From Gammaproteobacteria bacterium (GTDB taxonomy: Bacteria > Pseudomonadota > Gammaproteobacteria > QZLD01): a DNA stretch of 64,000 bases. The number at the start of each line of letters is the position of its first letter. Within the stretch, counting starts at the first letter, position 1. Shown piece by piece: positions 4,466 to 21,728 of the stretch. A model generated the notes under the pieces. That model was not told where the DNA came from. It saw only the letters and a program-made list of their open reading frames with translations, and searched no databases. A program made the translations under genes and the position numbers. The DNA lies in the NCBI GenBank assembly GCA_033852075.1, contig JAWSVC010000014.1, positions 113 through 64,112 of the forward strand, given 5' to 3'.

Positions 4466-4479
4466 CTACCTATACACCA

Positions 4480-4514
4480 GAAGTGCAAGATTAAGACTCT
4501 TGCACTTCTTTCGG
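4480..4514 (+). terminator. Hairpin GAAGTGCAAGA-ttaagac-TCTTGCACTTC followed by TTTC. Likely terminator after the GlyGly-CTERM protein gene.
   Basis: Perfect 11-bp inverted repeat 15 nt after the stop codon, with a short U tract. Confidence 0.4.
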
Positions 4515-4647
4515 ATAGAATTAGAAATCAATTTCATTGCCTAATAAAAACCATCTATTAATAATAATTCTCCATTTCTTTCCTATAATTAAATCCATGG
4601 ATAAATAATTTTCCTTTTGTGCTTTTACCTATCGCTAGGAGTGCAGC

Positions 4648-7137
4648 ATGCGTACCTATAATTTAGCTTTTCGCAGCCATCTAAAAAAAATATTACGACC
4701 ATTAATACTTGTTGTAACAATGGCCTTATGCTGCTTTTCATTTGCTCAAGAAACTTCCGACATTGTTATTACTATAAATGGATCAACAACAGTACACCCA
4801 TTAGCGAATGCTTTTTCTGCTCACTATTCCAAACTACACCCTGAGGTAAGATTTGATATATCTGCAACTGGTAGCGGAGCCGGTGCAAATGCCCTTATAG
4901 AAGGTAAGTGCGACATTGCAAATATGTCTCGCTTTATGAAACAGGCTGAATTCCAAAAGGCTATCGAAAATGGTGTTCTGCCGGTTTTTCATACGGTTGC
5001 CATGGATGCTTTGCTGGTTATTACTCACAAAGACAATCCGATTGATGGGCTTTCCATAAAGCAAGTTCGGCAAATTTATTCCGGCGAAATAACCAATTGG
5101 AAAGAGGTTGGCGGTCGTGATGCTCGAATAACCGTAATTGCTCGGGACTCAAAAAGTGGCACTCAAAAGGTATTCAATGAACTGGTAATGCAGGGACAAT
5201 CAACAAAACCGGAATTTGAGCTAGAACACAATCGCCTGATTCAAACAATGGTGCAAGATGATCCTAATGCTATTGGATATGGAGGTTTGGCCTTTGCAAA
5301 TGGTGTTAAGCCTTTAGCGGTTGATGGCGTTACCCCGGATAGAGAACATATTGCTGCCAGCAAATACCCACTTGCAAGACCTCTTTTTATGGTTACCAAT
5401 GGTTATCCCAAACTTGGTTCTCATATCCAACAGTTTATTAATTTTTATGCTAAGCCGGCTGGACGTCTTGCAGTTGAAGAAGCAGGTTATGTATCCTTAC
5501 AAGGATATGGTGAAGTAACACTTGAAGATGTATTCAAGATTTATTGGCCATGGCTTGCACTGAGCGGATTCCTTATTATGGTTGTATATGCAGCCAGATC
5601 ATATTTATATGCTCGTAATATAAATAAGCATAGAAACAAGCTTAATAATTTACAAAACTACTTATATAACATAATCAATTCCATGCCATCAGTGATAATA
5701 AGTGTTGATAGTAATGGAATTATCAAACAATGGAACGTTCAGGCTGAAAAAATATTTAATTGTTCTTTTGCTGATGCCATAGGATCTAATGCAAGTGAAT
5801 TAATTACTATCAAAAGCCCCATCATAGATAAGCTTTCTGAAAATATTATTTATAACGATGTTTTTTCCGACGTTGAGGTTGAGTCAGTAATAGGTGATGA
5901 AACTCGTTATTTTGATATTACATTATTCCCTTTAAAAGAAGGAGATAGTCAAGGAGCTGTTATTCGTATCGACGATGTAAGTAAAAAGGTTGAGATAGAT
6001 AAAACCCTAAAACAAAGTAGAAAGATGGAAGCAGTTGGACAACTTGCCGGAGGCATTGCACATGACTTTAAAAACATGCTTGGTGCCATTCTAAGCGCTA
6101 GCCAACTATTTCAGTACAGAATGAGCAAGGAAGACCCTAATTTTAAATATGTAGAAATTATAGAAAGCGCATCAGAACAAGCTTCCGATCTTATTAGCAG
6201 ACTTTTAGATTTTTCTCGCAGAAGCAGTATAAGTGCAAAAATTGAGTTGCACAGCGCCATTGAAAATAGCATCAAACTATTAAAGCACAGCCTGCAAAAA
6301 AACATATTAATCGAAACAGATTTTCAGGCAGAAGAGGACACCGTTTTTGGTGATTTTTCGCAACTCCAAAATGTATTTTTAAATCTTGGTATTAATGCTG
6401 GTCATGCAATGCCATCTGGTGGGCACCTTGCATTTAAAACGCGAATTGTTGAACTCACACAGGAGTTTTGTGAACAAAGTTCCTACGCAATAGAACCTGG
6501 AAAATTCTTTCTTGTAGAAGTATCTGATACCGGATCAGGCATCCCCAATAAAATCATAAAAGAAATATTTGATCCTTTTTTCACCACCAAAGATCCTGGC
6601 AAAGGAACTGGGCTTGGCCTTTCTTCTGTAAAGTCAATACTAGAACAACACCATGGAGCTATCAATGTATACAGCGAACTAGGAAAAGGCAGCGTATTCC
6701 ATCTTTACTTCCCATTAGTAGAACCCGAAAAAATAGCCAGTAAGGATATCAAAACACAGTGGATTACTGGTAGTGGAACTATACTTGTAATTGAAGATGA
6801 ACCTATGATTCGTAAGATGACAACATCTATACTTTCAGAGCTTGGTTACAACACCATAACTGCCGTCGATGGTATTGATGGAGTTATCCAGTATGAAAAA
6901 AACGCCTCTTCAATTGATCTTGTTCTGCTAGATCTTGTAATGCCCAAGGCCAGCGGACATGAATGCTTTACACATCTTAAATATATCAATCCAAATGTTA
7001 AGGTAATTGTGTTAACCGGATTCTTACAGCAACAATATCTTGATGAGTTGATTAAAGCCGGCGTATGTGGGTACATCTCAAAACCTTATCGAATCGAAGA
7101 CTTAAGTCAGCTGATTAATCATGTGCTTTCTACTTAG
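4648..7137 (+). CDS. Hybrid sensor histidine kinase (829 aa). Domain order: signal peptide, periplasmic PstS-like phosphate-binding domain, TM, PAS, HisKA, HATPase, C-terminal receiver.
   Basis: The N-terminal domain carries a PBP_like_2/PstS signature (ITINGSTTVHPL...SATGSGAGANALIEGKCDIANMSR). TM helix IYWPWLALSGFLIMVVYAA. H-box GGIAHDFKNMLGAI. G-boxes DTGSGIP...GTGLGLS. REC domain ILVIEDEP...LVLLDLVMP...KPY. Confidence 0.8.
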   Translation: MRTYNLAFRSHLKKILRPLILVVTMALCCFSFAQETSDIVITINGSTTVHPLANAFSAHYSKLHPEVRFDISATGSGAGANALIEGKCDIANMSRFMKQAEFQKAIENGVLPVFHTVAMDALLVITHKDNPIDGLSIKQVRQIYSGEITNWKEVGGRDARITVIARDSKSGTQKVFNELVMQGQSTKPEFELEHNRLIQTMVQDDPNAIGYGGLAFANGVKPLAVDGVTPDREHIAASKYPLARPLFMVTNGYPKLGSHIQQFINFYAKPAGRLAVEEAGYVSLQGYGEVTLEDVFKIYWPWLALSGFLIMVVYAARSYLYARNINKHRNKLNNLQNYLYNIINSMPSVIISVDSNGIIKQWNVQAEKIFNCSFADAIGSNASELITIKSPIIDKLSENIIYNDVFSDVEVESVIGDETRYFDITLFPLKEGDSQGAVIRIDDVSKKVEIDKTLKQSRKMEAVGQLAGGIAHDFKNMLGAILSASQLFQYRMSKEDPNFKYVEIIESASEQASDLISRLLDFSRRSSISAKIELHSAIENSIKLLKHSLQKNILIETDFQAEEDTVFGDFSQLQNVFLNLGINAGHAMPSGGHLAFKTRIVELTQEFCEQSSYAIEPGKFFLVEVSDTGSGIPNKIIKEIFDPFFTTKDPGKGTGLGLSSVKSILEQHHGAINVYSELGKGSVFHLYFPLVEPEKIASKDIKTQWITGSGTILVIEDEPMIRKMTTSILSELGYNTITAVDGIDGVIQYEKNASSIDLVLLDLVMPKASGHECFTHLKYINPNVKVIVLTGFLQQQYLDELIKAGVCGYISKPYRIEDLSQLINHVLST

Positions 7138-7140
7138 ACA
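6952..7140 (+). repeat. Copy 1 of an approximately 188-bp direct repeat. It is the 3' end of the hybrid HK gene and is repeated at 21541-21728.
   Basis: Direct comparison gives about 90% nucleotide identity. Encoded peptide here is ...CFTHLKYINPNVKVIVLTGFLQQQYLDELIKAGVCGYISKPYRIEDLSQLINHVLST. Copy 2 encodes ...CFTHLKYINPNIKVIVLTGFLQQQYLDELIKAGVCGYISKPYRIEDLSKMINHVIST. Confidence 0.85.
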
Positions 7141-7263
7141 CATCGATTTCAGGTTGGACGACATTTGATGAAAGCGGAGAATTATCGTTTGTTAAGAGGC
7201 CGAGCTTTTGATGAATGGAGTAGGGCGAGTTGCGTCCAAAATATAGGTTTGTCAATAACCTGA

Positions 7264-7289
7264 GATGAAACTTTATTCATCCTTTTTTT
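7264..7289 (+). terminator. Hairpin GATGAA-actttat-TTCATC followed by CTTTTTTT.
   Basis: Six-bp stem plus T7 tract, about 130 nt after the HK stop codon. Confidence 0.35.
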
Positions 7290-7342
7290 AATACCAATGC
7301 TAAAAATGGAAAAACTTTTTTAAACAGCAATGAAGCAAAATA

Positions 7343-7708
7343 TTATTTACCTGTTTTTTCAGGAACATAAACCACTTCACCACTGGGTAGCTGATAGGCA
7401 ACACCCAACCGTTGACCGTTGCCACCAATCTCCTCTTCACTAATCTGGTAATGGTCAATTTTCACCCCCTGTTTGGTGATGATCTCCATATTATCCTTGC
7501 CTGGATTTTTTATAATTGTAATATCATCCTTAGATGTTAGTAATTCGGGTACGCTAAGAGCAGTAAACATCGCCAGTATTAATGCCACTGCAAAAACCAT
7601 AGCGACATCAAAAAGGTTAGCAACGGTTGCTAAAGGATCTTCGTCAACAGCTCCAAGCAATTGCTTATACCTTTGACTTTTTGAATTGGGCGTTATTCTA
7701 CCGATCAT
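7343..7708 (-). CDS. Small membrane protein, DUF2149-like (121 aa), with an ExbD/TolR-like single TM. It is the partner of the ExbB-like gene.
   Basis: TM segment DVAMVFAVALILAMF near the N-terminus. The start overlaps the upstream ExbB-like stop by 4 nt. Family assignment is from memory of the conserved ExbB-like/DUF2149/CobN-like neighbourhood. Confidence 0.5.
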   Translation of the reverse strand: MIGRITPNSKSQRYKQLLGAVDEDPLATVANLFDVAMVFAVALILAMFTALSVPELLTSKDDITIIKNPGKDNMEIITKQGVKIDHYQISEEEIGGNGQRLGVAYQLPSGEVVYVPEKTGK

Positions 7709-8394
7709 ACCTGGCGCTTATCTTTATTATAACTAACAGAGGCATTACCGGCAGACACCACTGCATTCTTAACCACACCAATAGGCCCTTGCACAATATA
7801 ACGGGTTAACTGCTCTGTTTGCATCATATCTCTGGCATACCAATATTGCCGGATAATCAGCATTACATAACACAATGCTCCAACTACCAAACCGGCAACG
7901 GTGGTACTAAAGACAATAATAAGTTCCTGAGACATCATCCCCAAATTACCCTGAGAGATGCTCATCAGGGCTGGTCCCATCGGGATCAATGTACCCATTA
8001 GCCCCAACATTGGTCCAATGCGCAATCCGATACGGATACGCGCCAGACGCTTTGCTGCATTAAACTCGATCTCCTGCAACACTTGTTCAAGCAATATTGC
8101 TTCACAGTGAGTTTTTTGCTTTGCCATAATCAATGAAGTTTGCTGCAATAAATACGGAGCGGCAATAGATGAAAGTAATTGGTTAAGGGAAATACGGGAA
8201 GCAGGGGCAGATTTACAAAAATCGCTCAATTGCTGATTCCATATATATCGATTAGTTCGTCGCTCTAACCACTCACGCAAAAACATACCAATTTCATACA
8301 GTGACCATAGCAATGCCAATAAAAGCCCAGTTATAACCGGAACCTTTAATGCTGCGGTGATGGTATAGAGAATAGATGTAACTTGCTCAATCAT
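7705..8394 (-). CDS. MotA/TolQ/ExbB-family proton channel protein (229 aa).
   Basis: Three TM helices with ExbB-like motifs (GPMLGLMGTLIPMGPAL and VFSTTVAGLVVGAL). Overlaps the CobN-like stop. Confidence 0.7.
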   Translation of the reverse strand: MIEQVTSILYTITAALKVPVITGLLLALLWSLYEIGMFLREWLERRTNRYIWNQQLSDFCKSAPASRISLNQLLSSIAAPYLLQQTSLIMAKQKTHCEAILLEQVLQEIEFNAAKRLARIRIGLRIGPMLGLMGTLIPMGPALMSISQGNLGMMSQELIIVFSTTVAGLVVGALCYVMLIIRQYWYARDMMQTEQLTRYIVQGPIGVVKNAVVSAGNASVSYNKDKRQV

Positions 8395-11300
8395 CTGCTA
8401 CATCCTTGATTCGCTGTTTTTTGCCCTGATGGTAGAATCCTACTGCAATCAACAATATGGCAATGATGATAACCACAATCAGAGTCAGGTGGCTCTGAAA
8501 AAAAGAGGAATACTGAACTGGTTTTTCCTGAGGCTGCTGCGCATTTTTCTTTTCCAGCTTTTTACCCTGTATCGGTTCATTAGAAGCCTTTCCAGGAGCG
8601 ATATCGGTAAGTTCAGCAGAGCGCTGTTGATATTGTTCAAGAATTTGGTTTAATTTTGGTGAATTTGGTGCAGAAAGTGTTTTATCAATAAACTGTTCCA
8701 GTTTTTCGTTTCCCCCTTCGCGTACTCCACTAGCGCGACCATGTTTGGCAACCGACTCGGCATAGGCAGCGGCAATCTCAAGACGGGTAGCTTCATCGGC
8801 CTGCCAATAACCTTTGCGTATGGTTTCCAGCATAGTTACAGCCAGTTTTTGAAATGCGTGCGGATTGGTTTTATCAAACCATTCTCTGATATCCAGATTC
8901 TGACTGTCACGCACATAAACATCGGCCACGTTATCCCAGTTGGCATCACTGAATGTCTGTTCACGCATGATTTCCCACCCCATCATGTTGTCGAGATTTT
9001 TAGCCAGGATATTGCCGCCGGCATAACCCTCTTTCATCATCGCCTTAATCCAGTTTGGATTGACCACGCGAATAAGTAAATCCTGCCTTGCAGCGGTAGT
9101 GGAATCAACCAGTTTTGCTTCGTCGGTATTGCGTACATCTACAAACAGCAGTTGCGGTTCGTTACCACTCATCTGCTTGATTGCAAGCGACAGTGTGCCA
9201 TCAACCCACCATGCAAATTTATTGGAAAGAACAAAATCGCGGTTATCGTACCAGCTACGCATAATTGTTTCGGTACCACTAAGAGCCTGGTCAAAAACTT
9301 CAGGTGCATTTTCGCCCCAGATCCCTTCGGTATATACGTGTTTATTGTATTTTAAGAACAGTTCAACAAGTTCCTCGCGACTTTCCCATTCTCCGGAACG
9401 CTCGGTCAGATAAAAAAACCAGTTGTGACTATCGATAATTTCTTCAGGTTTGGCGCCAAACATCCGTGCCTGCGAAAGCGCCAGTGCTCGCTGTTTTGCT
9501 ATACCTTCGGATTCAAGTTGTTTTCTTGTTGCTTCACTATGTTGGTAGACATAGTTATCCGGTTCTTTTTGCGATGCTGCCAGACGAATTGCGCGATCAA
9601 GCAGATGCATCATGGTTGGAAGTTCATCACGATAAACACTACGTGCCGACAAGAATACATCTATACGGGGACGCCCCAGTTCTTCGGCTGGAATCAGTTC
9701 AACATCACGCACCCGGTTCTTAGCATCCCACACCGGACGCACTCCCATCAAGTACAGTATTTGCGATTCAATAATGCCAAAATCACTATAGGTGGCAAAC
9801 GGAATCAGGCTGAACGCGATCTTCTGCGGATATTGGCCTTTGATTTCAAACTCGTCTGCCAGATGTTGATCTATTAACTTTTTCGCCAGATCCCATGATG
9901 CCTTGGATGGCAACTCTTCGGGATTGAGAATATAAAGATTGCGTCCACTTGGCACAACCGCCGGGTTACGTTCCGGACTACCTGATGGCCCCGGCAGAAT
10001 AAACCTACCCTCAAGTGCCGCAAAAACATTATCAATTTCATAATGAGTTTGCTGCAATCCGCTGTTCATCTCAACTGCCACTTCTAGTCCTTCAACAAAG
10101 GCTTCCGGCAATCCAGCAGCAGGAACTTCACCGTCACTTTGTTCCACCGCCTGAGCAAAAGTAAGGTTTTCCTGTAAAACCGATTTCAGAATCTCACGCC
10201 CTTTTTCTTTCAGGAAAAAGATATCCATCTCCTCTTCATCCTCATCATAGAGCTGCTTAAGACTGTTAAGAAAACGTTTTCCAAGACCGGAAACCAGATA
10301 AGGAACCAGTAATTCATCACTTGGAGGTTCTCCCAGAATATGCATTCCGGCCGGAACCTGTGCATTCATCAAGTCATGCAGGTGTAGTGAAAGCTGCTCA
10401 ATCTGCTCTTCCGTCATTAAATCATCCGCCCCTAAAGACAGATTTAAATCTCGATCCATACCGGTTGCAATAGTCTGTTCGGTAACTGCCCTGGCAAAGC
10501 GTTTCTTTAAAAAACCAATACCCAGTTGCTGATAACGATGAATATCTATCTCAAGATTAACCAGTTCATCCGGCAAACCTGCATCCATTAGCGGAGGAGG
10601 AATAAAGCCGATGTGCACAGCATGAGCACGCCGCTTGCTCGGCAATAATTCACTGGTATTGCTGGTCAGCCAGGGATTAATATTGGGCAGATCGCCAAGA
10701 AAAATATCACTCCAATCAGAACGCGACATAACCGCCATTTTCCCTTCATAAAGCCACTCCGAACCATGAGTACCAAAATGAACCAGAGCATCGGCATTAA
10801 AACCGTGTTGTAGCCAGAAATAGGAAGCAAGATAGTGATGCGTGGGAGGCAACAGACTTTCGCGAGTGTCCTGAACCTTCATCGAAGCGGTTAGAGTTTC
10901 ACCTTTAAGCGGCTGAGTAAATAGGATGACATTGCCTAAATCCAGTTTCGGCAAAACCAGATAGCGCTTGCCTTTATCTTCCCATACCATGATTTTTCCC
11001 GGTATCGCCCCCCACTGTTCAAGAACCTGATCCCGACGCCACTGCGGAATATATTCTTCAAACCATTGCTGGTATTGCTCCTCCGGAATAAGTACGGCAT
11101 GACCGCTACGCGCTATCCGGTCGATCTGGGCTGGCTCCCACTCTCCCATCTGTCGACCATGATCCATCATTTGAGTAACCAATTCCTCGGAACTGGATGG
11201 AGCATTATTAATCGTATATCCAGCTTTTTTCATTTCATCAAGAAACTTAATCATACTGCGTGGAGCATTCAGATTATGTGCAGGCCCGCTCATCAGACCG

Positions 11301-12472
11301 GATTTATCAGCTTCCCGGTCATAAATAACCAGTGCTATTTTTTTATTTTTATTAGATTTACGCCGCAGTTGTATCCAGCGTTTTGCGCGCCCGGCAATCC
11401 GGCGAATACGATCTGGGATTGGAATAATCTCTTCCCCGCTATCGTGACCGGTTTCGGTTCCACCAGCCGCCAGCGTTTCAGTGCCACCCTTCATCTCTGC
11501 CGATACAATTTGATGGAACTGCTGCGATTTCGACATGCCGGTCTGGTTGCTTTTGCGCCACTCATCTATTGACTCTTCGGTAAACCACATTGCATGCAGA
11601 CGTGGCACATCCAGTTTTTTCCAAAAATCCGGGCGCTCACGGGTATGTGAGTTCATAATCACCAGATCCGGTTTGAATGTTTCCAGTCGCTCTCGAAACT
11701 TTGGATCATCTGCAATAAAACTAACGGCCAGAATTTTCTGTTCGTGCAACTCATTAATGATTGCTTCTACCACACGAGGCTGATGAAACAGGACATGATG
11801 CCGCCATGTTCCCAATGCCACTCGAGGTGCATCTTGCAGATTCCACCCAGCCTTTTCAGCTTGCTGTAAAAATTGATCGACGGTTTCAAAATCACCATAT
11901 TGAGGGTGCCAGATCCTAACAACCTGTTCAGTAGGCGGAGGATTGATCTCACCCGGACGATTAAACCAGGTAATCAGCGCATAGCGTACCATCTCTTTCA
12001 TTGCTTCTCGTGACAAACCGTAATAGGACGCCATCTGTGGATCGCGCAGCATGTTCTCTGCGCCAATCCATTCCGCCCAGTTATTACATATCGGGCCAGG
12101 ACCAACACAAACCACTTTCAGCTGTGAACGTTTTTTCTTGGCGGTAACTACAGCCTGACGATATTGGTCTTTTAATTGACCTGAAGCAAATGAGGTTATT
12201 ATCAGATCAAATTTAGCCAAATCGGGCAACTTATCACGTCGAAACAGGTCAATCTTAAGTTTTGTAACTGTGACGTTCAGTTCATCCTGATAATCAGCCA
12301 TAGCATCAACCGCGCCACCTGCCATACCGATAACCCCAATGACAATTTTTTTCTCTGCCGGGGAGTTTTTTCTTTCTATCAAAGTATTATCAGCATCTGC
12401 TGCGTGCGCAATCTGAACCACATAGCTCAGCAAAAATATGGCTACTGGAATTAACCGAAAGATTATTTTCAT
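8387..12472 (-). CDS. CobN/Mg-chelatase-family large subunit homolog (1361 aa). It is exported (signal peptide) and has a C-terminal TM anchor. It resembles the HmuS type of TonB-receptor-associated (de)chelatases.
   Basis: Size is typical of CobN/ChlH. The conserved CobN motif ADALVHFGTHGSEWLYEGK is present. N-terminal signal MKIIFRLIPVAIFLLSYVVQIAHAADA. C-terminal TM LTLIVVIIIAILLIAVGFY. Confidence 0.75.
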   Translation of the reverse strand: MKIIFRLIPVAIFLLSYVVQIAHAADADNTLIERKNSPAEKKIVIGVIGMAGGAVDAMADYQDELNVTVTKLKIDLFRRDKLPDLAKFDLIITSFASGQLKDQYRQAVVTAKKKRSQLKVVCVGPGPICNNWAEWIGAENMLRDPQMASYYGLSREAMKEMVRYALITWFNRPGEINPPPTEQVVRIWHPQYGDFETVDQFLQQAEKAGWNLQDAPRVALGTWRHHVLFHQPRVVEAIINELHEQKILAVSFIADDPKFRERLETFKPDLVIMNSHTRERPDFWKKLDVPRLHAMWFTEESIDEWRKSNQTGMSKSQQFHQIVSAEMKGGTETLAAGGTETGHDSGEEIIPIPDRIRRIAGRAKRWIQLRRKSNKNKKIALVIYDREADKSGLMSGPAHNLNAPRSMIKFLDEMKKAGYTINNAPSSSEELVTQMMDHGRQMGEWEPAQIDRIARSGHAVLIPEEQYQQWFEEYIPQWRRDQVLEQWGAIPGKIMVWEDKGKRYLVLPKLDLGNVILFTQPLKGETLTASMKVQDTRESLLPPTHHYLASYFWLQHGFNADALVHFGTHGSEWLYEGKMAVMSRSDWSDIFLGDLPNINPWLTSNTSELLPSKRRAHAVHIGFIPPPLMDAGLPDELVNLEIDIHRYQQLGIGFLKKRFARAVTEQTIATGMDRDLNLSLGADDLMTEEQIEQLSLHLHDLMNAQVPAGMHILGEPPSDELLVPYLVSGLGKRFLNSLKQLYDEDEEEMDIFFLKEKGREILKSVLQENLTFAQAVEQSDGEVPAAGLPEAFVEGLEVAVEMNSGLQQTHYEIDNVFAALEGRFILPGPSGSPERNPAVVPSGRNLYILNPEELPSKASWDLAKKLIDQHLADEFEIKGQYPQKIAFSLIPFATYSDFGIIESQILYLMGVRPVWDAKNRVRDVELIPAEELGRPRIDVFLSARSVYRDELPTMMHLLDRAIRLAASQKEPDNYVYQHSEATRKQLESEGIAKQRALALSQARMFGAKPEEIIDSHNWFFYLTERSGEWESREELVELFLKYNKHVYTEGIWGENAPEVFDQALSGTETIMRSWYDNRDFVLSNKFAWWVDGTLSLAIKQMSGNEPQLLFVDVRNTDEAKLVDSTTAARQDLLIRVVNPNWIKAMMKEGYAGGNILAKNLDNMMGWEIMREQTFSDANWDNVADVYVRDSQNLDIREWFDKTNPHAFQKLAVTMLETIRKGYWQADEATRLEIAAAYAESVAKHGRASGVREGGNEKLEQFIDKTLSAPNSPKLNQILEQYQQRSAELTDIAPGKASNEPIQGKKLEKKNAQQPQEKPVQYSSFFQSHLTLIVVIIIAILLIAVGFYHQGKKQRIKDVADD

Positions 12473-12497
12473 CAGATCCCTTTATGTCACGATTAGA

Positions 12498-14525: not shown

Positions 14526-14612
14526 ATTTTTTCCTTAATAAAAACAAAACAACGTGTAATACAAAACAAGAGCGGCATATTAATGAAAAAACATGACACT
14601 ATTATTAAGCGC

Positions 14613-16223
14613 TTACATATCGTTAGATTTGATCGGATAATCAACCCATATATGACTTATTCCAAAGGCCCTTACAATAAAATAAATCAGTATTATCCCA
14701 ACCGTTATAATTATCGGCCAATTTGGAAATCTAGCCCATAAAGTAGGGCGATATGACCGCAAATTGATTACCCCTTTAATGATTGATTTGCTTTCGATAT
14801 CTGATTTTTTTACTACCCGCGCATTATCGATAATGGCTGCAACTCCGTAACCGGTTGATCGAATTGCCGGCAAGCCATATTCGGCACTTCTAAGAATAAG
14901 CATATCGAGCTGTTGCTCGGATTCGGAGCTATTACCAAACCATGCATCGTTAGATATATTTACAATCAGACTGCTTTGTTGCGAGATAATATCGTGTGAT
15001 AGTTTTGGCATACCAATTTCATAACAGATCATTGTAGCCAGTGAAATATCCCTACCTATATCCCGAAAGGTAATCGGCAGAGCATTCTCACCTTTATGGT
15101 AAAACTGGCTCTGTTGATATCCACCCAATGAAAATAATGCATATTTACGCTCAGCAAATGGCAATAGAAAATTTTTATCATAACGTCCTGCTGCTTCACC
15201 ATCCGGTGAATATAAAAATGCGGAATTATATATCCTTCTGCTCTCCCCCTTTCCGATAAAAGCAGGGGAACCGGTAAGAAGCCATGCCCCTGTCTTTTGG
15301 GTTATCTCCCTAATTACTTTTTTTGCTAATACAGAATTCTCTACGCCAGAAGTTATAGCGGTTTCCGGCCAAATGATAAGACGGGTATTCTCCGAATCAC
15401 CATCATCAAATGCCAGCAATGACATCTGCCGATAAATAGCCAATGTCTGTTGGTTAAATTCACTATTCCAACGCTGCTTTTGATTGATAACAGGATGAAT
15501 CAATGCAATTTCAATTTCATTTCCGCTTGATCCCTTATTATTAGGCAAGCTCATTACCCCAATCACGAATGTAAGAATGATTATAAAAAATGCCACAGTT
15601 GCCGCTTTAAAAAAGATAGGAATATTCTTAATGCCCCAAAAAAAGATCAGGCAACATAAAATAACTACAAAATGCAATCCAACACCACCGATGTATCCAG
15701 CAAGACCGTGCAAACCGGGAATATTTACAAGAGCAGCAGGGAAAAAACCCCAGCTATTTTCAGGGGAAATATTAATTCTTAACCATTCTATGGTTGTAAA
15801 TATTGATGCAGTTAATGCCGAAAAAAACACAGCTATTATGATGTTTTTCGTATTCACCAATAATGTAATTGGGTATTTGGCAATCTTTACCACCAACCCC
15901 ATCCAGATACCATGAGGAACTACTACCACCGATAAAAATAATAACCACGCAAGTAGCAAATAAAGCTGATAATGATTAGTCAGGGTTTCCAACAACCAAA
16001 AACTAATGGTTATTGCTTTTGTACAACCATAAATAAAACCGCAAATAAATGGATATTTAGATCTCTCTACCGCATAGAAAAAGATTAAAAATGCCGGAAT
16101 AACAATAATAAAACAATGGTATGGAGCAAAAACTAACCGCATAGCTATACCAGAAATCACACACAGCATCAGATAGTTCATTTCCCGGTGTCTTGTTTTT
16201 ATATCAATTAATTTTTGTAACAT
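14613..16223 (-). CDS. lnt: Apolipoprotein N-acyltransferase (Lnt) paralog. It has a polytopic N-terminal domain, a CN-hydrolase domain and a C-terminal TM. The start codon is uncertain (alternatives 16277, 16223 or 16181).
   Basis: Lnt catalytic-triad motifs are present: IWPETA, RYDKNFLLPFAE (E. coli YDKHHLVPFGEF) and MICYEI (E. coli ICYEI). N-terminal match LVFAPYHCF to Lnt LAFSPYDVW. The gene sits in an accessory island rather than the usual ybeX-lnt context. Confidence 0.75.
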   Translation of the reverse strand: MLQKLIDIKTRHREMNYLMLCVISGIAMRLVFAPYHCFIIVIPAFLIFFYAVERSKYPFICGFIYGCTKAITISFWLLETLTNHYQLYLLLAWLLFLSVVVVPHGIWMGLVVKIAKYPITLLVNTKNIIIAVFFSALTASIFTTIEWLRINISPENSWGFFPAALVNIPGLHGLAGYIGGVGLHFVVILCCLIFFWGIKNIPIFFKAATVAFFIIILTFVIGVMSLPNNKGSSGNEIEIALIHPVINQKQRWNSEFNQQTLAIYRQMSLLAFDDGDSENTRLIIWPETAITSGVENSVLAKKVIREITQKTGAWLLTGSPAFIGKGESRRIYNSAFLYSPDGEAAGRYDKNFLLPFAERKYALFSLGGYQQSQFYHKGENALPITFRDIGRDISLATMICYEIGMPKLSHDIISQQSSLIVNISNDAWFGNSSESEQQLDMLILRSAEYGLPAIRSTGYGVAAIIDNARVVKKSDIESKSIIKGVINLRSYRPTLWARFPNWPIIITVGIILIYFIVRAFGISHIWVDYPIKSNDM

Positions 16224-16290
16224 ATGATTAATAATGTAGATGTAACATGTCGGTAAATTTACATTCAGCAGACACATTCAGAAAATAAAT

Positions 16291-16527
16291 ATGCCTAAAG
16301 GAAAGATCCTAAAATACAAGAGCGGTTATAATCCTAACTCCAGCTCGATTGGTACCAACCTTACGCCATTATTAATTGGCGGAGCCGTTATATCATTATG
16401 CATTCCAATTATTTCAATTTTTGTAGCACGCAGAATCAAAAGAAAGAATAAGGCATCTGTTGATATTGATTCTAGTAATAATGATTCTGATAATATTGAA
16501 ACTGAAGATTTAACCGAGAAAGAATAA
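16291..16527 (+). CDS. Hypothetical small membrane protein (78 aa) with one TM and an acidic tail. It is divergent from the lnt paralog. Coding status is uncertain.
   Basis: ORF with TM LTPLLIGGAVISLCIPIISIFVA followed by RRIKRKNK. There is no convincing SD sequence. Confidence 0.25.
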   Translation: MPKGKILKYKSGYNPNSSSIGTNLTPLLIGGAVISLCIPIISIFVARRIKRKNKASVDIDSSNNDSDNIETEDLTEKE

Positions 16528-16552
16528 TCAATAATCTTATTTGCAACAAAAA

Positions 16553-17737
16553 CTACAAATACCCACGAACTACAAACGGGCATTCCGGATCAGGATCTGA
16601 TAACGAACCACTAACAAAACGGCTTACGGCATGACATCCACCTTTGCAGATATTTAGATAATTGCATTTGCTACAGATCGTATCATTACAATCATCCCAG
16701 TTTCTGAATGCAGAAAAGGTATCTGTTTTATTCCAGTTCTCAGCTAGTTGTTCGAGCGGCACATTTTCATTCTCAATAAAGCTACAAGGAGAAGCCAAAC
16801 CATTGGCATTAACTCCTATCAGCCAATTTCCTGCATCACATCCCATAATTGCGAAGTATTCCAGAATTTCACGAGGAGGATTATGAAAACAAATAAATGG
16901 AGTAAATGAGCAATCAAGTTTAAGACTTACCCGATATTTTCTAGCCAGCTTTTTTAACCTGGGATAAAGGTCAATAACCTGCTCGGGTTCTAACTTCATT
17001 TGATCGTAGATATCTTTACCACGCCCTGATGGTTTAAAGCGTAAGAATTCTATATCAACTATCTTTCTCTTTTTGGCATAGGCAATTATTGCCTCTAACG
17101 ATTCATAGTTTTTCCGAGAAATAACACAGTTGATACCAACCCTGATATCGTTTTGTTGCAGCAGTCCAATAGCTTGGTCGGCAAGCTGAAAATGCTCTTC
17201 CGGCCTGCTGGTTTCCAGTTTATTATCGACGCTATCCAGACTTACATTTACCTGTCCAAATACCCTACATTTTTCTGCCAACTCAGGAGTTATAAGATGG
17301 CCGTTTGTTGTTACGTTTGGAACAATATTGTATTGCCGAAAACATTCAGCAAGTTCAAAAAACCACGGAATGGAAAAGGACTCGCCGCCCCCCAGTGCAA
17401 CATGAAATATCTTCATTTCGGCAAGTTTATTGGCAACCGAAATGGCTTTTTGCAGATCTTCTTCTTTATCGTTTAGTTTTTCAATATCATTGCTGGAAGC
17501 CATGTAGCAACCGCTGCAACCTAGAGAGCAATAATCGGTAATGGCATAATGCGCCTCTATCGGCCCGGATAGTATTCCGTTATCTGGTTGATTCCATATA
17601 TCATCATCTTTGCGGCTTAATTCTTTAATATAATTTTTATCCACGAAGGTCAGTGCCGGAGGATTATTGGTGGCAATTATTCCGCCAAATGTTTCGTAAC
17701 GAAGAAGAAAGTCGTCTTGCATTATATTGTTCACCAA
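16553..17737 (-). CDS. Radical SAM enzyme with a C-terminal SPASM domain (394 aa). It is a probable peptide/cofactor-modifying maturase.
   Basis: CX3CX2C motif (CSLGCSGCYM) at about residue 70. C-terminal auxiliary-cluster cysteines (CDAGNW...SPCSF...CSKCNYLNICKGGCHAVS). Confidence 0.8.
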   Translation of the reverse strand: MVNNIMQDDFLLRYETFGGIIATNNPPALTFVDKNYIKELSRKDDDIWNQPDNGILSGPIEAHYAITDYCSLGCSGCYMASSNDIEKLNDKEEDLQKAISVANKLAEMKIFHVALGGGESFSIPWFFELAECFRQYNIVPNVTTNGHLITPELAEKCRVFGQVNVSLDSVDNKLETSRPEEHFQLADQAIGLLQQNDIRVGINCVISRKNYESLEAIIAYAKKRKIVDIEFLRFKPSGRGKDIYDQMKLEPEQVIDLYPRLKKLARKYRVSLKLDCSFTPFICFHNPPREILEYFAIMGCDAGNWLIGVNANGLASPCSFIENENVPLEQLAENWNKTDTFSAFRNWDDCNDTICSKCNYLNICKGGCHAVSRFVSGSLSDPDPECPFVVRGYL

Positions 17738-17771
17738 CTATTCATAGGCGCATTGCCGTCCAAAATAAGTT

Positions 17772-18809
17772 TTACGGCAGATATACCTGCCCCTGAGTCC
17801 CAATTTGAGATAACCGAAGATTAATATCCCAACGGACTTTAGCCCCTTTCATAAAGCCTGCCTGGTAAGTACCGCTGCCGCTTAATTTAGCAGAGGTAAG
17901 TACATTATCTTCAATTCTGGCAGTTACAGTGCCGTTTAGACTATGGAGCTTTATCTTCTGGTTTTTTTCATCAATATCTTCGCGTTTTGCGATATTCCAG
18001 GTAGCTGTATCTCCTGTTTCACTTACCAACTCAAGATCTATTACCGGCTCAATATCTCTGATTATCTCAACCCATTTTTTTCTAACCAGCGGCTCTCCGT
18101 GTGCTTTATCCAGCATCTCATTAACTAAAGCTAACTTGTCATTTTGGAATTGGTTTCCACTGGAATCGTAATATTCAGTTTCACCATCTACAAAATAATA
18201 ATCTCCGTTATAGATTGGCGCAGAAAAAACCTCTTGTTTACTGTTACTTTTACTTGTCTGATATAGCGCAAAATCGCCTTCATCATCCTTTAATAATTTG
18301 AATTTGCTTTTTACGATATAGCTTTCCCCGTCGAAATTATCGCGTCGATTGGTAAAGCTTGGCACCTCAAGTTCCATCTCCCCCGTATAGGCAAAGGAAG
18401 GGAAAAATATCATAAGATTTTTCACCGGCATGGCAAATTGCCGCAATTTTGAAACTGTTTCAAGCCGTTGCGGATCTTTGAAAAGGGACTCCTCCGGATC
18501 ATCGACTACCACGCTGGCAATCGTAATATTCTTTAACTTTGGATCGATTTTACTATCCTGGGAATACTGACTTTGCGCAATAGATTTATTGCCTGCATCC
18601 TTGTCTACTGAATGAGTGGTTTCAGTAATCTGCGGTTTGGGTTGCGACTCACTAATTTGTTTATCAGCTCGCATTACAGAATGCGCAATAGAACCAGATT
18701 TATTTTCTACTTGATTTGCTTCAGCTCTACCCCAATCTTTTGCAATATATAAAAACAGTGCAATAAAACATACCAGCGCAGAAACAACTGCAACTATCCT
18801 GTTCTTCAT
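17772..18809 (-). CDS. Hypothetical exported/membrane-anchored protein (345 aa).
   Basis: N-terminal hydrophobic anchor MKNRIVAVVSALVCFIALFLYIA. No recognisable motifs. Its start overlaps the stop of the upstream gene by 4 nt. Confidence 0.5.
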   Translation of the reverse strand: MKNRIVAVVSALVCFIALFLYIAKDWGRAEANQVENKSGSIAHSVMRADKQISESQPKPQITETTHSVDKDAGNKSIAQSQYSQDSKIDPKLKNITIASVVVDDPEESLFKDPQRLETVSKLRQFAMPVKNLMIFFPSFAYTGEMELEVPSFTNRRDNFDGESYIVKSKFKLLKDDEGDFALYQTSKSNSKQEVFSAPIYNGDYYFVDGETEYYDSSGNQFQNDKLALVNEMLDKAHGEPLVRKKWVEIIRDIEPVIDLELVSETGDTATWNIAKREDIDEKNQKIKLHSLNGTVTARIEDNVLTSAKLSGSGTYQAGFMKGAKVRWDINLRLSQIGTQGQVYLP

Positions 18810-20011
18810 ATAAAGAGCCTTTCGATATAAGTCATCAAACCCAATGAATAAAACAATATATATGTGATACTTAAATGTAATACCATCAAAGATGGAAGAT
18901 AAAACTTCATCTTTATTTCCAATCTTGAATCAAGCTCCATAATCAGACCGTTAGCAACAATAAAGAACAAAGTAACTACCATAATCAATATCATTAACCA
19001 AGGTTCCATTCCTGTCATATTGTTATGTTTTGCATCGGTTAGATAGAATATTACAACCGGCAATATTATTGCTGCGGGAATAAATAACATCGAATGAAAT
19101 AATCCGGTTTTCAGCCCGGAGGCAAGATTAATTTTTTTTATTGGAATAACCTTGTATATCGCGACTAAAGCACCAACCAAAGCTATGAGTGCAATTATAA
19201 ATCCTTTATAACGATTAGAATTAATATTAGCGCGCATCATATCATTTCCAATAAGCCTGCTGGCAAACCCACCTCCCTGTTGTTTAACCAAATTGTAGTA
19301 ACTTTGCGCCTTTCCGAAATTTTTTAATAAATAGTGGCAATCACCTATATTTTTCAAAACTACTACTTTGTGCGGCGAATTTGGATATTCATCTAATATC
19401 CGGTTATAGATTGGTATGGCTTTTCTTATGCTGGAAAATTCCTCTTCATTTTGTGGAATTCTTTGACGCCCCCGATATTCATTTGCCAACCAGAATAAGG
19501 CATCATCTAAAGCCTTATAGTCTGGATAATCCTTCACAAATCTTTCCAGCCTTTGGATAAATACCGCATTTTCTCCGGGACGATAGCTGTTGAGAATAGT
19601 TTGAAACTCTTTATAAGTTACAAGATTTATATCCTTATACCTTTTCAAGGCATTAATTCTTATTTCTGCCCTACGGGAATGCCTTCCATTATATATTTCT
19701 ATATATTCCTGATAGATCTCTAACGCCTCAGATGGTAAAAAAAGTTTTTCGTCGAGTATTACCGCCTTTTTAAAAAGCGATTCTTCTGCATACAACTGAT
19801 CGCCATATTTCGCATAAATCTCTTCATATGCACTTATTGCAACCTGATAGTTATTATAATTTTCATATGACTGAGCTTTTTTAAAAAGCATACGGGCTTC
19901 ATTTTGCCGGTCATCTGTTGTTGATTGTTGCTGTGCGTATAAAGAAAATGAGTAACAAAAACTTATTATAACTAATAAGGTATAAATAAGGGGTCGATGC
20001 ATTGGTTTCAT
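18806..20011 (-). CDS. Membrane protein with an N-terminal signal, a TPR-like periplasmic region and four C-terminal TM helices (401 aa).
   Basis: Signal MKPMHRPLIYTLLVIISFCYSFSLYAQ. TPR-like helical repeats. Four C-terminal hydrophobic helices. Confidence 0.5.
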   Translation of the reverse strand: MKPMHRPLIYTLLVIISFCYSFSLYAQQQSTTDDRQNEARMLFKKAQSYENYNNYQVAISAYEEIYAKYGDQLYAEESLFKKAVILDEKLFLPSEALEIYQEYIEIYNGRHSRRAEIRINALKRYKDINLVTYKEFQTILNSYRPGENAVFIQRLERFVKDYPDYKALDDALFWLANEYRGRQRIPQNEEEFSSIRKAIPIYNRILDEYPNSPHKVVVLKNIGDCHYLLKNFGKAQSYYNLVKQQGGGFASRLIGNDMMRANINSNRYKGFIIALIALVGALVAIYKVIPIKKINLASGLKTGLFHSMLFIPAAIILPVVIFYLTDAKHNNMTGMEPWLMILIMVVTLFFIVANGLIMELDSRLEIKMKFYLPSLMVLHLSITYILFYSLGLMTYIERLFI

Positions 20012-20043
20012 GTTTTTTACGAACTGGTCTAAGATGCAATGCA

Positions 20044-20066
20044 GGTAGATAAATCAATTATCTACC
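20044..20066. promoter_or_regulatory. Perfect 9-bp inverted repeat GGTAGATAA-atcaa-TTATCTACC. Candidate operator with a Fur-like GATAA...TTATC core, upstream of the minus-strand island operon.
   Basis: Read directly from the sequence. It lies in the 75-bp gap between the phosphoesterase stop and the start of the 401-aa gene. Confidence 0.3.
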
Positions 20067-20086
20067 TACTGCAACAGGAAAAATTA

Positions 20087-21322
20087 CTAAAGAACGATAC
20101 GCTCAAGCAATGAGGATGAACTGTTTCCTTGCCCTTGTACCTTATAGGTTTCCATAACCAAAGATGAATCATTAACATCAACTATTACATAGTTCAATAC
20201 ATCTTCATATTTGTGAATTGTGGCGTTCGAAGAAATATCTTCTATCTGAATAATCGGGCTACCACCACCACCGCTTAATATGTAATGGATACCATTCATT
20301 TCCAGATGCTGATAATCATGATCGTGCCCTTCAAAAACAGCTTTTACACCATATTGTTCAAACAAAGGACGAAGATTATTTACCAGAACCGGATTATCAC
20401 CCCAGGAAGAAGCTGAATGAACAGGTACATGCAGTGAAACAAAGATATGATCTATATCAATGTCTGCTGCGGCATTTTGCAGGTCAGACTGAATAAAGTT
20501 ATATTGCGACGTTCCCGGTAACAGTAAATCATAGCTGTCATTGTTACTGGTGTATTTTCCGGTGTTTATCACCAAGATATGCACGTTGCCATAATTGTAT
20601 GAATAATAAGCAAAGTCACCGCTATTACCAGAACTCATAAGGTAACTGTCAAAATAGGTATTTCCAGTACCATTGCCATCTGAAAATTCATGATTCCCAT
20701 AAGTAGGCACAAGAGGATGATTACGTAAAAGATCCTTTTCAACATCGAAAAAGTTAATTACGTCATCCATATCTGTTCCATCAAGTGCAAAATCACCAAC
20801 ATGCAAAACAAAATCAGGAGATTTAGAGGCCATGCTCTGGCATACAGGAAGATGATCGTCATTATCACCATAAGCAGCTACAATATCCTCATACCATGCG
20901 GCTTCACGGGTATCCCCGTAAACAGCAAAACGGAAAGGAAGACGACTTCCCTTTGGAAGCGCAGTTACAAATGAGCCAACCGGACTGGTTGTTCCATCGG
21001 ACGTAACCGTATAGTAATACCGGGTATTGGTACTTAAACCGGAAAGTGTCATCTTTCTGATCTTACCGGAAGAGATCTGATGAGTAACATAATTACTCAT
21101 ATTTGAATTTAAAGAAACCTTAAGGGTTGCAGAATCAGAATTGTACGTTTCAAATGCTATTCCAACAGAATCCGATGTTAATTGCTGCAATAGCGGATAA
21201 ACACGAAATCCAGTTTCCGGGTCATCCCCCCCTGCAAATGCTGAAGATGAAATAATAAAAAAAAAGGGTAGTAAAGAATATTTTAGAAAACGATTGAGAT
21301 TTGGCATTACCTTCAACTCCAT
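20087..21322 (-). CDS. Secreted calcineurin-like metallophosphoesterase of the purple-acid-phosphatase type (411 aa).
   Basis: Signal peptide. Metallophosphatase motifs GDTRE, HVGDFALDG, GNHEF and GHDHDYQH. Confidence 0.7.
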   Translation of the reverse strand: MELKVMPNLNRFLKYSLLPFFFIISSSAFAGGDDPETGFRVYPLLQQLTSDSVGIAFETYNSDSATLKVSLNSNMSNYVTHQISSGKIRKMTLSGLSTNTRYYYTVTSDGTTSPVGSFVTALPKGSRLPFRFAVYGDTREAAWYEDIVAAYGDNDDHLPVCQSMASKSPDFVLHVGDFALDGTDMDDVINFFDVEKDLLRNHPLVPTYGNHEFSDGNGTGNTYFDSYLMSSGNSGDFAYYSYNYGNVHILVINTGKYTSNNDSYDLLLPGTSQYNFIQSDLQNAAADIDIDHIFVSLHVPVHSASSWGDNPVLVNNLRPLFEQYGVKAVFEGHDHDYQHLEMNGIHYILSGGGGSPIIQIEDISSNATIHKYEDVLNYVIVDVNDSSLVMETYKVQGQGNSSSSLLERIVL

Positions 21323-21540
21323 GATTAATTAACCATAACCAGATATCTACTTAACTTGTTCTCAGAAAAAACAAAATTATGAAATAAATAACATGGCAAA
21401 TAGTAATAATTAATTATGAATCTAATGTTACACAAAAATTAAATAATACAATTAGCTAAAAAACCGCAAGCATCTATTGATACAATCAACAGCCATTGCT
21501 CGCAATACCCTAACCCCAGTAAAAATGTACCGGTCAAGTC

Positions 21541-21728
21541 TAACCGGACATAAATGCTTTACACACCTAAAATACATCAATCCAAATATTAAGGTAATTG
21601 TGTTAACCGGATTCTTACAGCAACAATATCTTGATGAGTTGATTAAAGCCGGAGTATGTGGGTACATCTCAAAACCTTATCGAATTGAAGATCTGAGCAA
21701 AATGATTAATCATGTTATTTCTACTTAG
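21541..21728 (+). pseudogene. Orphan 3'-terminal fragment of a hybrid-HK gene homologous to the 4648-7137 gene (copy 2 of the direct repeat). It has no upstream gene body.
   Basis: Encodes only the last ~60 residues of the receiver domain. The upstream sequence is AT-rich non-coding. Differences from copy 1 are mostly synonymous or conservative. Confidence 0.7.

Follow-up and report, generated by a model that had tools for sequence, protein, structure and literature searches.

Downstream of an intact hybrid sensor histidine kinase gene, at a distance of 14.6 kb, lies a leftover of the last 60 codons of the same kind of gene. Because the block in between consists of two ordinary operons of the clade and has no mobility genes, we read this leftover as a recombination scar rather than as the edge of a mobile island. 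The window, i.e. the whole stretch of DNA analyzed here, comprises 64 kb of a single metagenome-derived gammaproteobacterial contig. Our tentatively preferred explanation, with a probability of about 0.45, is that DNA was displaced or inserted with no integrase, through recombination with a diverged allele in which one joint, at 21544/21545, was illegitimate. An earlier sequence-only reading of this DNA had kept capture by homologous recombination from a related strain as a fallback, and this is thereby the mechanism that we favor; the mobile insertion put forward first in that reading holds for the repeat and its selection signature, but not for a foreign or self-mobile island.

The two kinase tails form the sole long direct repeat within the window (195 nt, 90% identity, offset of 14,591 nt), which the sequence-only reading had located correctly; the coordinates of all features are collected in Table 1. 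In both copies homology continues 11 nt beyond the stop codon. On the 5' side it stops sharply at 21545, upstream of which the frame of copy B is riddled with stop codons. Copy B, annotated by NCBI as an 83-aa ORF (21477-21728), aligns with positions 55-111 only of the Pfam receiver model and lacks the phospho-acceptor Asp, so the earlier description of a tail with no gene body is borne out. The Band7 operon is convergent to this tail, and the stop and last codons of its first listed gene overlap the tail's end. For the spacer behind copy A neither a match elsewhere nor a terminator was detected.

Table 1. Features of the kinase locus and of the bracketed block (positions in the window)
Feature	Position	Strand	Remarks
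Intact hybrid sensor histidine kinase	4648-7137	+	829 aa; Pfam: PBP_like_2, PAS, HisKA, HATPase_c, C-terminal Response_reg
Repeat copy A	6954-7148	+	final 60 codons, stop and 11 nt 3' of intact kinase
Near-identical repeat core, copy A	6998-7094	+	identical stretches of 64 and 32 nt, one SNP between them; counterpart in copy B 21589-21685
Spacer	7149-7342		copy A end to DUF2149 stop
Module 1, Hmu-like	7343-14525	-	four genes, Pfam and NCBIfam
DUF2149	7343-7708	-	module 1
ExbB-like	7705-8394	-	module 1
CobN-like	8387-12472	-	module 1; 1361 aa; below every NCBIfam equivalog cutoff
TonB-dependent receptor	12498-14525	-	module 1; best NCBIfam match TonB-hemin subfamily
Module 2	14613-21322	-	Lnt-like, rSAM/SPASM-like, unknown, TPR, PAP
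Lnt-like	14613-16277	-	module 2
Conserved single-pass membrane protein	16291-16527	+	78 aa; opposite strand to neighbors
rSAM/SPASM-like	16553-17737	-	module 2
Unknown protein	17772-18809	-	module 2; 345 aa
TPR protein	18806-20011	-	module 2; 401 aa
Purple-acid-phosphatase-like metallophosphoesterase (PAP)	20087-21322	-	module 2
19-nt motif	21413-21431	-	GTAAyATTAkATTCATAAT (gene strand); ~90-110 nt upstream of PAP
Unassigned 113 nt	21432-21544		PAP upstream region to orphan tail; ends at non-homologous joint 21544/21545
Terminator-like hairpin and T-run	21530-21547	-	spans homology boundary; downstream of Band7 operon
Repeat copy B, orphan tail	21545-21739	+	60 codons, stop and 11 nt; pseudogene fragment
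Right flank	21721-25347	-	operon of Band7a (21721-22671), Band7b and CDF-Band7

Over 183 coding nt, made up of 180 nt in sense codons and the stop codon, the copies differ at 16 nucleotides, distributed over codon positions 1/2/3 as 6/0/10. Nine codon changes are synonymous and five are conservative (E/K, V/I, Q/K, L/M, L/I), in agreement with the sequence-only reading, and the dN/dS alignment proposed there as a check gave a ratio of 0.10 (dS 0.364, dN 0.036). The orphan has no stop, indel or second-position change inside the tail, and all its replacements are conservative. Neutral decay of the orphan was rejected by simulation, with p=0.0005 when 12 substitutions are placed on the orphan lineage and p=0.015 when 8 are. 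Taken together, the low ratio, the lack of second-position changes and the simulation imply that two functional alleles existed. By its substitution pattern, then, the orphan would descend from a once-functional homolog that diverged under purifying selection, as had been supposed, and not from a simple duplication followed by neutral decay. Derived residues found in both copies and absent from all orthologs (CFTHLKY, FLQQQ, VCGYI and a short ..ST* end) place the origin of the second allele within this lineage rather than in a distant donor.

The divergence is unevenly spread along the repeat. Third-position identity between copies A and B rises from 0.79 at the 5' edge to 0.97 in the core and then falls to 0.45 at the 3' edge, compared with 0.44, 0.41 and 0.62 among orthologs; at the 3' edge, the copies have diverged synonymously as far as distant orthologs have from one another. 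An identical run of at least 64 nt between the copies has p=0.006. Since orthologs lack such a mosaic of diverged edges and a near-identical core, the pattern indicates that the core was probably homogenized by recombination or gene conversion.

The periplasmic domain of the kinase is PstS-like, and orthologs of the kinase are 71-73% and 51% identical; no relative above 73% was found in the genomes and metagenomes searched. In the 71-73% relatives the kinase is followed by TerB-DnaJ and YjbQ, with neither Band7 nor the block, and hence two separate non-ancestral contexts must be assumed for the kinase 3' end.

According to the explanation that we prefer, two diverged alleles of one PstS-domain hybrid histidine kinase would once have met at this locus. 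One of them would be today's intact gene, and the other would have been cut by the non-homologous joint, so that only its last 60 codons survive beside the convergent Band7 operon. Donor, direction and mechanism of this event are inferred as follows. The most likely source would be DNA of a related lineage, acquired with no integrase: a homologous crossover inside the kinase gene or on its left side would have formed one end and an illegitimate joint the other (homology-facilitated illegitimate recombination, HFIR, or 'displacement'), so that the incoming kinase allele and its two attached operons came to stand before the resident tail. Integration of a circularized, tail-carrying copy by a Campbell-type single crossover could have led to the same product. 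The central 64 and 32 nt may have been made identical by later gene conversion between the co-resident copies, or by the crossover itself.

A model in which HFIR-type displacement leaves orphaned 3' fragments behind has been documented (PMC5361080; PMC3240628). Rhs, CdiA and Vibrio T6SS effector-immunity arrays resemble our locus in having an intact gene followed downstream by the orphan 3' fragment of a diverged, once-functional allele, in the abruptness of the non-homologous joint and in the lack of a dedicated recombinase; the mechanism proposed for them combines a homologous anchor with an illegitimate end (PMC5361080; PMC3240628). The scar at the kinase locus shows the same marks: its orphan fragment lies downstream of the intact homolog in the same orientation, has an abrupt non-homologous 5' joint and derives from a diverged allele under purifying selection. 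In contrast, those cases concern polymorphic toxins with variable C-termini and immediately adjacent orphans, whereas here a signaling kinase with a conserved C-terminus is separated from the orphan by 14.4 kb of unrelated operons. Several observations count against displacement: HFIR is rare in experiments (PMC5361080), the integrase-mediated e14/icd anatomy is nearly equal to that of the locus, and neither a donor allele nor an empty site was found in the collections searched, where the nearest kinases are 71-73% identical. The two non-ancestral contexts required for the kinase 3' end weigh against it as well.

The content of the block bears on whether it is foreign or mobile. No integrase, transposase, phage or conjugation gene was detected among its ORFs by Pfam, NCBIfam and PHROGs scans, no recombinase or other mobile-element gene elsewhere in the 64-kb window, and no tRNA at either junction, in agreement with the lack of an integrase or transposase noted from the sequence; the intergenic gaps in the block are too short for a decayed integrase. 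No difference in codon usage was seen between the block and the remaining window (p=0.41). The median GC3 of the block is slightly higher (0.344 vs 0.301, p=0.02), which counts against displacement, yet its GC3 stays inside the window range, and the highest GC3 in the window belongs to the Band7 operon, outside the bracket. The GC content of the CobN-like gene, 45.7% here and 39.7% in the same-clade relative L062, likewise counts against displacement. Every block gene has a same-clade ortholog at 52-90% identity (in L062 and L066), a range to be set beside the 51-73% of the kinase to its own orthologs. Module 1 orthologs in L062 are 58-82% identical, while the module 2 operon is conserved in both relatives at 52-90% and occurs also in distant high-GC metagenome contigs. 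In L062 the two operons are adjacent in a circularly permuted order, with DUF2149 followed directly by PAP, in a chromosomal setting with no kinase tails or flanking repeats near them. Relatives carrying the block with no tail duplication had been named beforehand as a case that would speak against an insertion, and L062 represents this case in part. Judged by these comparisons, the block consists of two ordinary chromosomal operons of an uncultivated gammaproteobacterial clade, and insofar as the term implies foreign origin or self-mobility, its designation as an accessory insertion is not upheld.

An unlikely alternative is site-specific integration of the e14/icd type, in which a 14.6-kb element would have supplied a surrogate kinase 3' end by means of a tyrosine recombinase since lost or encoded elsewhere (trans-mobilized, CIME-like), with copy B as the displaced native tail. 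Cryptic prophage e14 (and phage 21) sits in the 3' end of E. coli icd, so that, as at our locus, the insert lies between the 3' end of a functional gene and an orphan copy, the icdC pseudogene (PMC13626634). The anatomy of this control is close to ours, in line with the replacement 3' end recognized in the sequence-only reading: a repeat of ~165-170 nt with 91-92% identity, codon positions 2/0/13 and a spacing of 15.1 kb in icd-icdC, against 183-184 coding nt plus 11 nt, 90%, 6/0/10 and 14.6 kb here. Both thus have an element-sized insert and a near-synonymous repeat (~165-195 nt at ~90%, mainly synonymous differences) with a sharp 5' homology boundary, and in the control, too, weak homology is seen just beyond the stop. 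Furthermore, a single carried fragment would account for both homology ends (offsets 1 and 195), and circularization of the block would bring DUF2149 and PAP, its inner-end genes, side by side as they are in L062. On the other hand, e14 encodes intE, xisE, pinE and phage genes and excises on SOS induction, whereas the block has no site-specific recombinase or excisionase, no phage, plasmid or conjugation cargo and no foreign composition, and carries two clade-native metabolic operons that are chromosomal in L062. The longest identity also lies centrally in our repeat but at the 5' boundary in e14.

A trans-mobilized form of this alternative would recall CIMEs, which are cis-mobilizable, att-flanked segments with no integrase of their own that derive from decayed ICEs or islands and rely on the integrase of a resident ICE. 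Like our locus, CIMEs have direct repeats around a segment devoid of recombination genes; unlike CIMEs, the locus gives no sign of an ICE, nor did an integrase turn up in the block or the 64-kb window.

Equally doubtful is an origin by deletion with no insertion at all. Here the genome would once have had two full-length diverged kinase paralogs or xenologs in the same orientation, the first pointing towards module 1 and the second towards Band7, until a deletion took away the second gene's body together with everything up to the PAP promoter. Gene fragments arise most commonly by deletion, and such a history would account for the selection signature on both copies, the sharp joint, the native composition, the gene conversion and the lack of mobility genes. 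Nevertheless, no second kinase paralog was found among 5.8 billion proteins, and the relatives show one ortholog type in the single conserved context before TerB-DnaJ. A pair of 2.5-kb direct repeats would also be unstable, and an earlier event would still be required to place the second copy exactly against Band7.

The junctions themselves are not artefacts of one assembly. Two independent Logan contigs are exact substrings of the window, L070 (three samples) at 7065-21618 and L082 at 21656-32671, and they reproduce exactly the two inner junctions as well as the right outer one, with L082 also backing the right flank. Exact-protein look-ups returned matches only to contigs of the same assembly graph. 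Phasing across the identical 64-nt and 32-nt stretches comes from the NCBI assembly alone, and the assembly graph is symmetric across them. It is conceivable, though improbable, that the chromosome runs from the kinase straight into Band7 (A5'-core-B3') and that a 14.59-kb block (B5'-core-A3') is circular or otherwise linked, or that both forms coexist in a mixed population. The k=31 Logan contigs break within the repeats, where the graph must break at shared k-mers, and cannot phase the copies; L070, at 14,554 nt, spans about one repeat period, and the source is one metagenomic contig. Against this, the 73-kb NCBI contig runs through both copies, ordinary 100-150-nt reads can do the phasing since no more than 65 nt separate the distinguishing SNPs, and a 14.6-kb circle lacking any replication or recombination gene is an implausible candidate for a stable replicon. 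The 5' joint of the orphan is present whichever phasing holds.

An old in-place, target-site-like or tandem duplication, in which the 195 nt were copied inside a single genome and the unused copy then decayed neutrally, would explain the lineage-specific residues and the 11 nt past the stop common to both copies, but is hardly credible given the intact orphan frame, the dN/dS ratio, the simulation and the ortholog-deep synonymous divergence at the 3' edge.

As to the gene content of the block, the genes listed in the sequence-only reading were confirmed, apart from their placement all on the minus strand. The minus-strand 'orf85' (16326-16583) is spurious, and the conserved small gene at this position is on the plus strand. 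Module 1 combines the TonB-dependent receptor, CobN-like, ExbB-like and DUF2149 genes in one operon whose order agrees with hmuR-S-(T)-U-V (PMC11681262). It shares this order with the Hmu haem-acquisition operon (hmuY-R-S-T-U-V) of Porphyromonas and Bacteroides, but has no HmuT, no HmuY hemophore (no HmuY-like gene was found in the block) and a gammaproteobacterial host (PMC11681262). By analogy, module 1 may be an Hmu-like TonB/CobN-like uptake module with haem as its putative substrate. The 19-nt motif upstream of PAP is also present in L062 and scores 28, compared with a maximum of 23 in shuffled sequences; it appears to mark the native upstream region of module 2.

A 195-nt stretch at the 3' end of the intact hybrid kinase gene (copy A) recurs as an orphan tail (copy B) in a gap-free direct repeat with 90% identity and a spacing of 14,591 nt, which is the sole long direct repeat of the 64-kb window. 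The repeat reported in the sequence-only reading is therefore real. As that reading also stated, the orphan has no gene body upstream: the same frame is packed with stop codons, and nucleotide similarity ends sharply at 21545. The match of copy B to the receiver model is limited to its second half, and the phospho-acceptor aspartate is missing, so that copy B cannot function as a receiver. NCBI annotates it as an 83-aa protein; we flag this entry of the public annotation as a pseudogene fragment. Beyond the stop codon the homology extends for another 11 nt, with ATCGATT common to both copies, and in copy B these 11 nt provide the codons for the last residues of Band7a, a gene of the convergent Band7 operon. 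A terminator-like hairpin (CCGGTTAGACTTGACCGG followed by a T-run) spans the precise edge of the kinase-tail homology, and transcripts of the Band7 operon would thus cross the orphan tail antisense before terminating.

Features of the kinase-tail repeat, the bracketed block and the neighboring DNA (window coordinates)
Feature	Position	Strand	Content or remark
Intact hybrid histidine kinase, 829 aa	4648-7137		PstS-like PBP_like_2, PAS, HisKA, HATPase_c, C-terminal receiver
Repeat copy A	6954-7148		3' end of the intact kinase gene
Module 1 (Hmu-like)	7343-14525		TonB-dependent receptor, CobN-like, ExbB-like, DUF2149
CobN-like gene	8387-12472		in module 1
Module 2	14613-21322		PAP-like phosphoesterase, TPR, unknown protein, rSAM/SPASM-like, small membrane protein, Lnt-like acyltransferase
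Single-pass membrane protein, 78 aa (MPKGKILKYKSGYNPNSSSIGTNLTPLL...)	16291-16527	+	between rSAM and Lnt; strand opposite to the rest of the block
PAP-like enzyme	20087-21322		block edge
19-nt motif	21413-21431		~90-110 nt before the start of PAP
Terminator-like hairpin	21530-21547	-	
Repeat copy B	21545-21739		orphan tail
Band7 operon	21721-25347	-	convergent on the orphan tail
Alkaline phosphatase	25667-27376		just past the Band7 operon
63-nt direct repeat	47658-47720 and 51252-51314		79% identity

This anatomy almost equals that of e14 in E. coli K-12, our positive control (PMC13626634), in which the icd 3' end and the pseudogene icdC form a repeat of ~165-170 nt with 91-92% identity and a spacing of 15.1 kb. 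The e14 repeat also has a sharp 5' boundary, weak similarity just beyond the stop and a comparable pattern of differences by codon position (2/0/13). Given this near-identity, the earlier recognition of the signature, a gene invaded at its 3' end and supplied with a replacement end, was sound.

The 16 coding differences between copies A and B are distributed over the codon positions as 6/0/10. Most of the changes are synonymous (nine codons) or conservative (five codons), as the sequence-only reading described, and the dN/dS alignment proposed with it gave a dS of 0.364, a dN of 0.036 and a ratio of 0.10. We simulated neutral drift of the orphan after a simple duplication and scored outcomes with no stop, no second-position change and at most five replacements. 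Such outcomes were rare, with p=0.0005 when 12 of the 16 substitutions were placed on the orphan lineage and p=0.015 when eight were, and simple duplication followed by neutral decay was rejected. Both copies therefore evolved within functional genes, and in comparison with their divergence the truncation is recent; the codon-position pattern and the simulation together support the earlier proposal that the orphan derives from a once-functional homolog. Copies A and B have residues in common that are absent from every ortholog, so the second allele arose within this lineage, its source being either a sister strain or species or a lineage-specific paralog. Ortholog states at the differing sites are balanced and uninformative as to which tail is native.

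The differences are concentrated at both edges of the repeat, and its center consists of 64 identical nt, one SNP and 32 identical nt; if differences were scattered uniformly, the 64-nt run would have p=0.006. At third codon positions the two copies have an identity of 0.79 (5' edge), 0.97 (core) and 0.45 (3' edge), as compared to 0.44, 0.41 and 0.62 for the same segments among four orthologs. Intrinsic sequence constraint was rejected as a cause, since the orthologs show no such conservation, and the core identity therefore reflects recombination, whether it was produced by the crossover itself or by gene conversion at a later time. The overall 90% understates how far the alleles have diverged outside the core. 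The e14 repeat has its identical core at the 5' edge, whereas that of the kinase-tail repeat is central.

Orthologs of the kinase are few (73, 71, 71, 71 and 51% identity). They were recovered from metagenomes of marine sediment and biofilm and belong to an uncultivated gammaproteobacterial group of ~40% GC (PMC6566015). In all four contexts at 70-73% identity, the kinase is followed by a same-strand gene for 273-275 aa, which encodes TerB and DnaJ domains in two contigs (L055 and L059, where YjbQ comes next), has no recorded domains in L061 and is an ORF of that length in L001. Neither the block nor a Band7 operon follows the kinase in any of the four, and the TerB-DnaJ gene and YjbQ pair is absent from the 64 kb of the window. 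The adjacencies of the kinase to module 1 and of the orphan tail to the Band7 operon are therefore specific to this lineage. A kinase scan of genome contigs, a full-length protein search and exact-protein look-ups of flanking genes returned no relative with a kinase more than 73% identical. A protein search with the tail only, for which the word index is insensitive at 60 aa, returned the tail itself alone, and JGI metagenomes, scanned at the DNA level with degenerate codons for the lineage-specific core peptide, yielded nothing.

We tentatively favor an integrase-independent recombination scar, to which we assign a probability of about 0.45. A diverged kinase allele would have come in together with attached DNA through homologous recombination, either within the kinase gene or to its left, and the other end would have been closed by an illegitimate joint at 21544/21545. 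Such a joint falls 184 nt ahead of the stop of the resident gene, and the resident tail would therefore be left behind; the center of the repeat would have been homogenized by later conversion. A circular copy entering by a Campbell-type single crossover would yield the same product; it would also explain why DUF2149 and PAP, which adjoin each other in the related contig L062, now lie at opposite inner ends of the block. Homology-facilitated illegitimate recombination in its "displacement" form is the model applied to the orphan 3' fragments of Rhs, CdiA and T6SS loci (PMC5361080, PMC3240628), and the structure is a fresh example of a genomic scar of a known, well-documented but ordinary type.

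An e14-type integration, with the integrase since lost or acting in trans, appears unlikely, even though the anatomy of the repeat resembles that of e14 so closely. e14 carries intE, xisE, pinE and phage genes, whereas the block has none of these. Pfam, NCBIfam and PHROGs searches, which included the unknown block ORFs, detected no integrase, transposase, excisionase, phage or conjugation domains in the block or the 64 kb, and the sequence-only reading had seen neither integrase nor transposase in the block; no tRNA was found at the junctions, and the intergenic gaps are too short to conceal a decayed recombinase. The further claim of an accessory mobile insertion is unsupported. Block proteins have clade orthologs at 52-90% identity (51-73% for the kinase), and block codon usage does not differ from that of the other window genes (p=0.41). 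GC3 of the block is slightly raised (0.344 vs 0.301, p=0.02) but inside the range of the window, the top value of which belongs to the Band7 operon outside the bracket. In the GC and tetranucleotide comparison proposed earlier, sliding deviation peaks within the block over the CobN-like and receptor genes only and is equalled elsewhere in the window, and composition was rejected as evidence of import. A replacement-gene-end signature can thus arise or persist around ordinary chromosomal operons without an integrase, and rules that call islands from duplicated gene ends should therefore also require mobility genes or an empty site.

The truncation by deletion of a second full-length kinase paralog, with nothing inserted, deserves similarly limited credence. 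A lineage-specific paralog is among the possible sources of the second allele, and this route would also explain the native-like codon usage.

A more doubtful proposal treats the block as a moving cassette that lacks a recombinase of its own: the kinase-tail repeats would let it loop out as a 14.6-kb circle, and it would enter genomes again through recombination at the kinase 3' end. Purifying selection would maintain the surrogate tail that it carries, since this tail completes the kinase in the integrated state. This proposal is compatible with the e14-like selection pattern, the identical central core and the gene order in L062, a 40-kb contig of a related gammaproteobacterium with the same genes on one strand. 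There, CobN, ExbB and DUF2149 (module 1 part, positions 1-4675) come first, PAP through Lnt begin 132 nt farther on, and housekeeping-type genes lie beyond. The order in the window, PAP through Lnt and then receptor through DUF2149, is a circular permutation of this arrangement. L062 has no kinase-tail sequence and no flanking repeats around the block genes. If the block does cycle through a circle, it would be an unusual cassette, in which host recombination drives mobility on the scale of operons.

The assembly leaves little room for an alternative phasing, or for a circle coexisting with an empty site. The protein collection contains the source genome a single time, on a 73-kb NCBI contig, and independent Logan assemblies gave identical contigs across three samples. 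Two of these, L070 (14,554 nt) and L082, are exact substrings of the window at 7065-21618 and 21656-32671, respectively; therefore the three joints between PAP-upstream DNA and tail B, DUF2149-downstream DNA and tail A, and tail B and Band7 are real molecules. Logan contigs end at repeat offset 112 of copy A and offsets 74 and 112 of copy B, where a k=31 graph must break because of the identical 64-nt and 32-nt runs. Logan data do not phase across the identical core and yield the same graph from the integrated structure as from a circle plus intact site; however, copy-specific SNPs are at most 65 nt apart, within phasing reach of ordinary reads, and such a phasing is therefore kept as a minor and very improbable rival. 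In-place duplication followed by neutral decay is rejected by the substitution pattern and has hardly any probability left.

Module 2 is conserved as an operon in L066 and L067 (66-90% identity) and in L062 (52-84%), and also occurs on distant high-GC metagenome contigs (57-65% GC), with one copy next to a TonB-dependent receptor. The genes for PAP, TPR, the unknown protein and rSAM/SPASM form its conserved set (window, L062, L066 and L072-L076), which is joined in close relatives by the small membrane protein and the Lnt-like acyltransferase. In the window, L062 and L072, module 2 adjoins genes for TonB-dependent uptake. In L066 and L068, Lnt has yet another neighbor downstream. The Hmu-like TonB/CobN-like module and the PAP-rSAM-Lnt-like operon thus travel together, in varying order, in a poorly sampled marine gammaproteobacterial clade.

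The block genes are as listed in the sequence-only reading, except for the minus-strand "orf85" (16326-16583), which is spurious; the conserved overlapping gene lies on the plus strand, so that the block is not all minus-strand as had been claimed. Its 78-aa product is strongly conserved in L062, L066 and L068. The gene order of module 1 is that of hmuR-S-(T)-U-V in Porphyromonas (PMC11681262); in module 1 this order of the hmuR-hmuS-hmuU-hmuV haem system occurs in a gammaproteobacterium, and a hemophore is lacking. The CobN-like protein falls far short of all CobN/BchH equivalog cutoffs of NCBIfam and is therefore probably not a cobalt or magnesium chelatase. Its gene has 45.7% GC in the window vs 39.7% in L062, though the protein is 82% identical, and the GC3 of the gene (0.417) equals that of the Band7 operon, which lies outside the bracket.

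Local alignment revealed a 19-nt motif, GTAAyATTAkATTCATAAT, upstream of PAP in both the window and L062 (4680-4698), within a spacer that is otherwise unalignable. The motif may be an operator or promoter element, and it marks the native edge of module 2. The 113 nt between motif and joint include the terminator-like hairpin on the Band7 strand. Neither the 113-nt nor the 205-nt junction spacer had a BLAST match in the window or in any fetched locus. A phosphate theme was noted in the PstS-like kinase sensor, the PAP-like enzyme and the alkaline phosphatase, and may be a functional reason for their linkage. The second, 63-nt direct repeat of the window lies downstream of a 1175-aa hybrid kinase and of an aminoacyl-tRNA synthetase, and includes a CTGCAGGCTTTTTT-type terminator-like segment.
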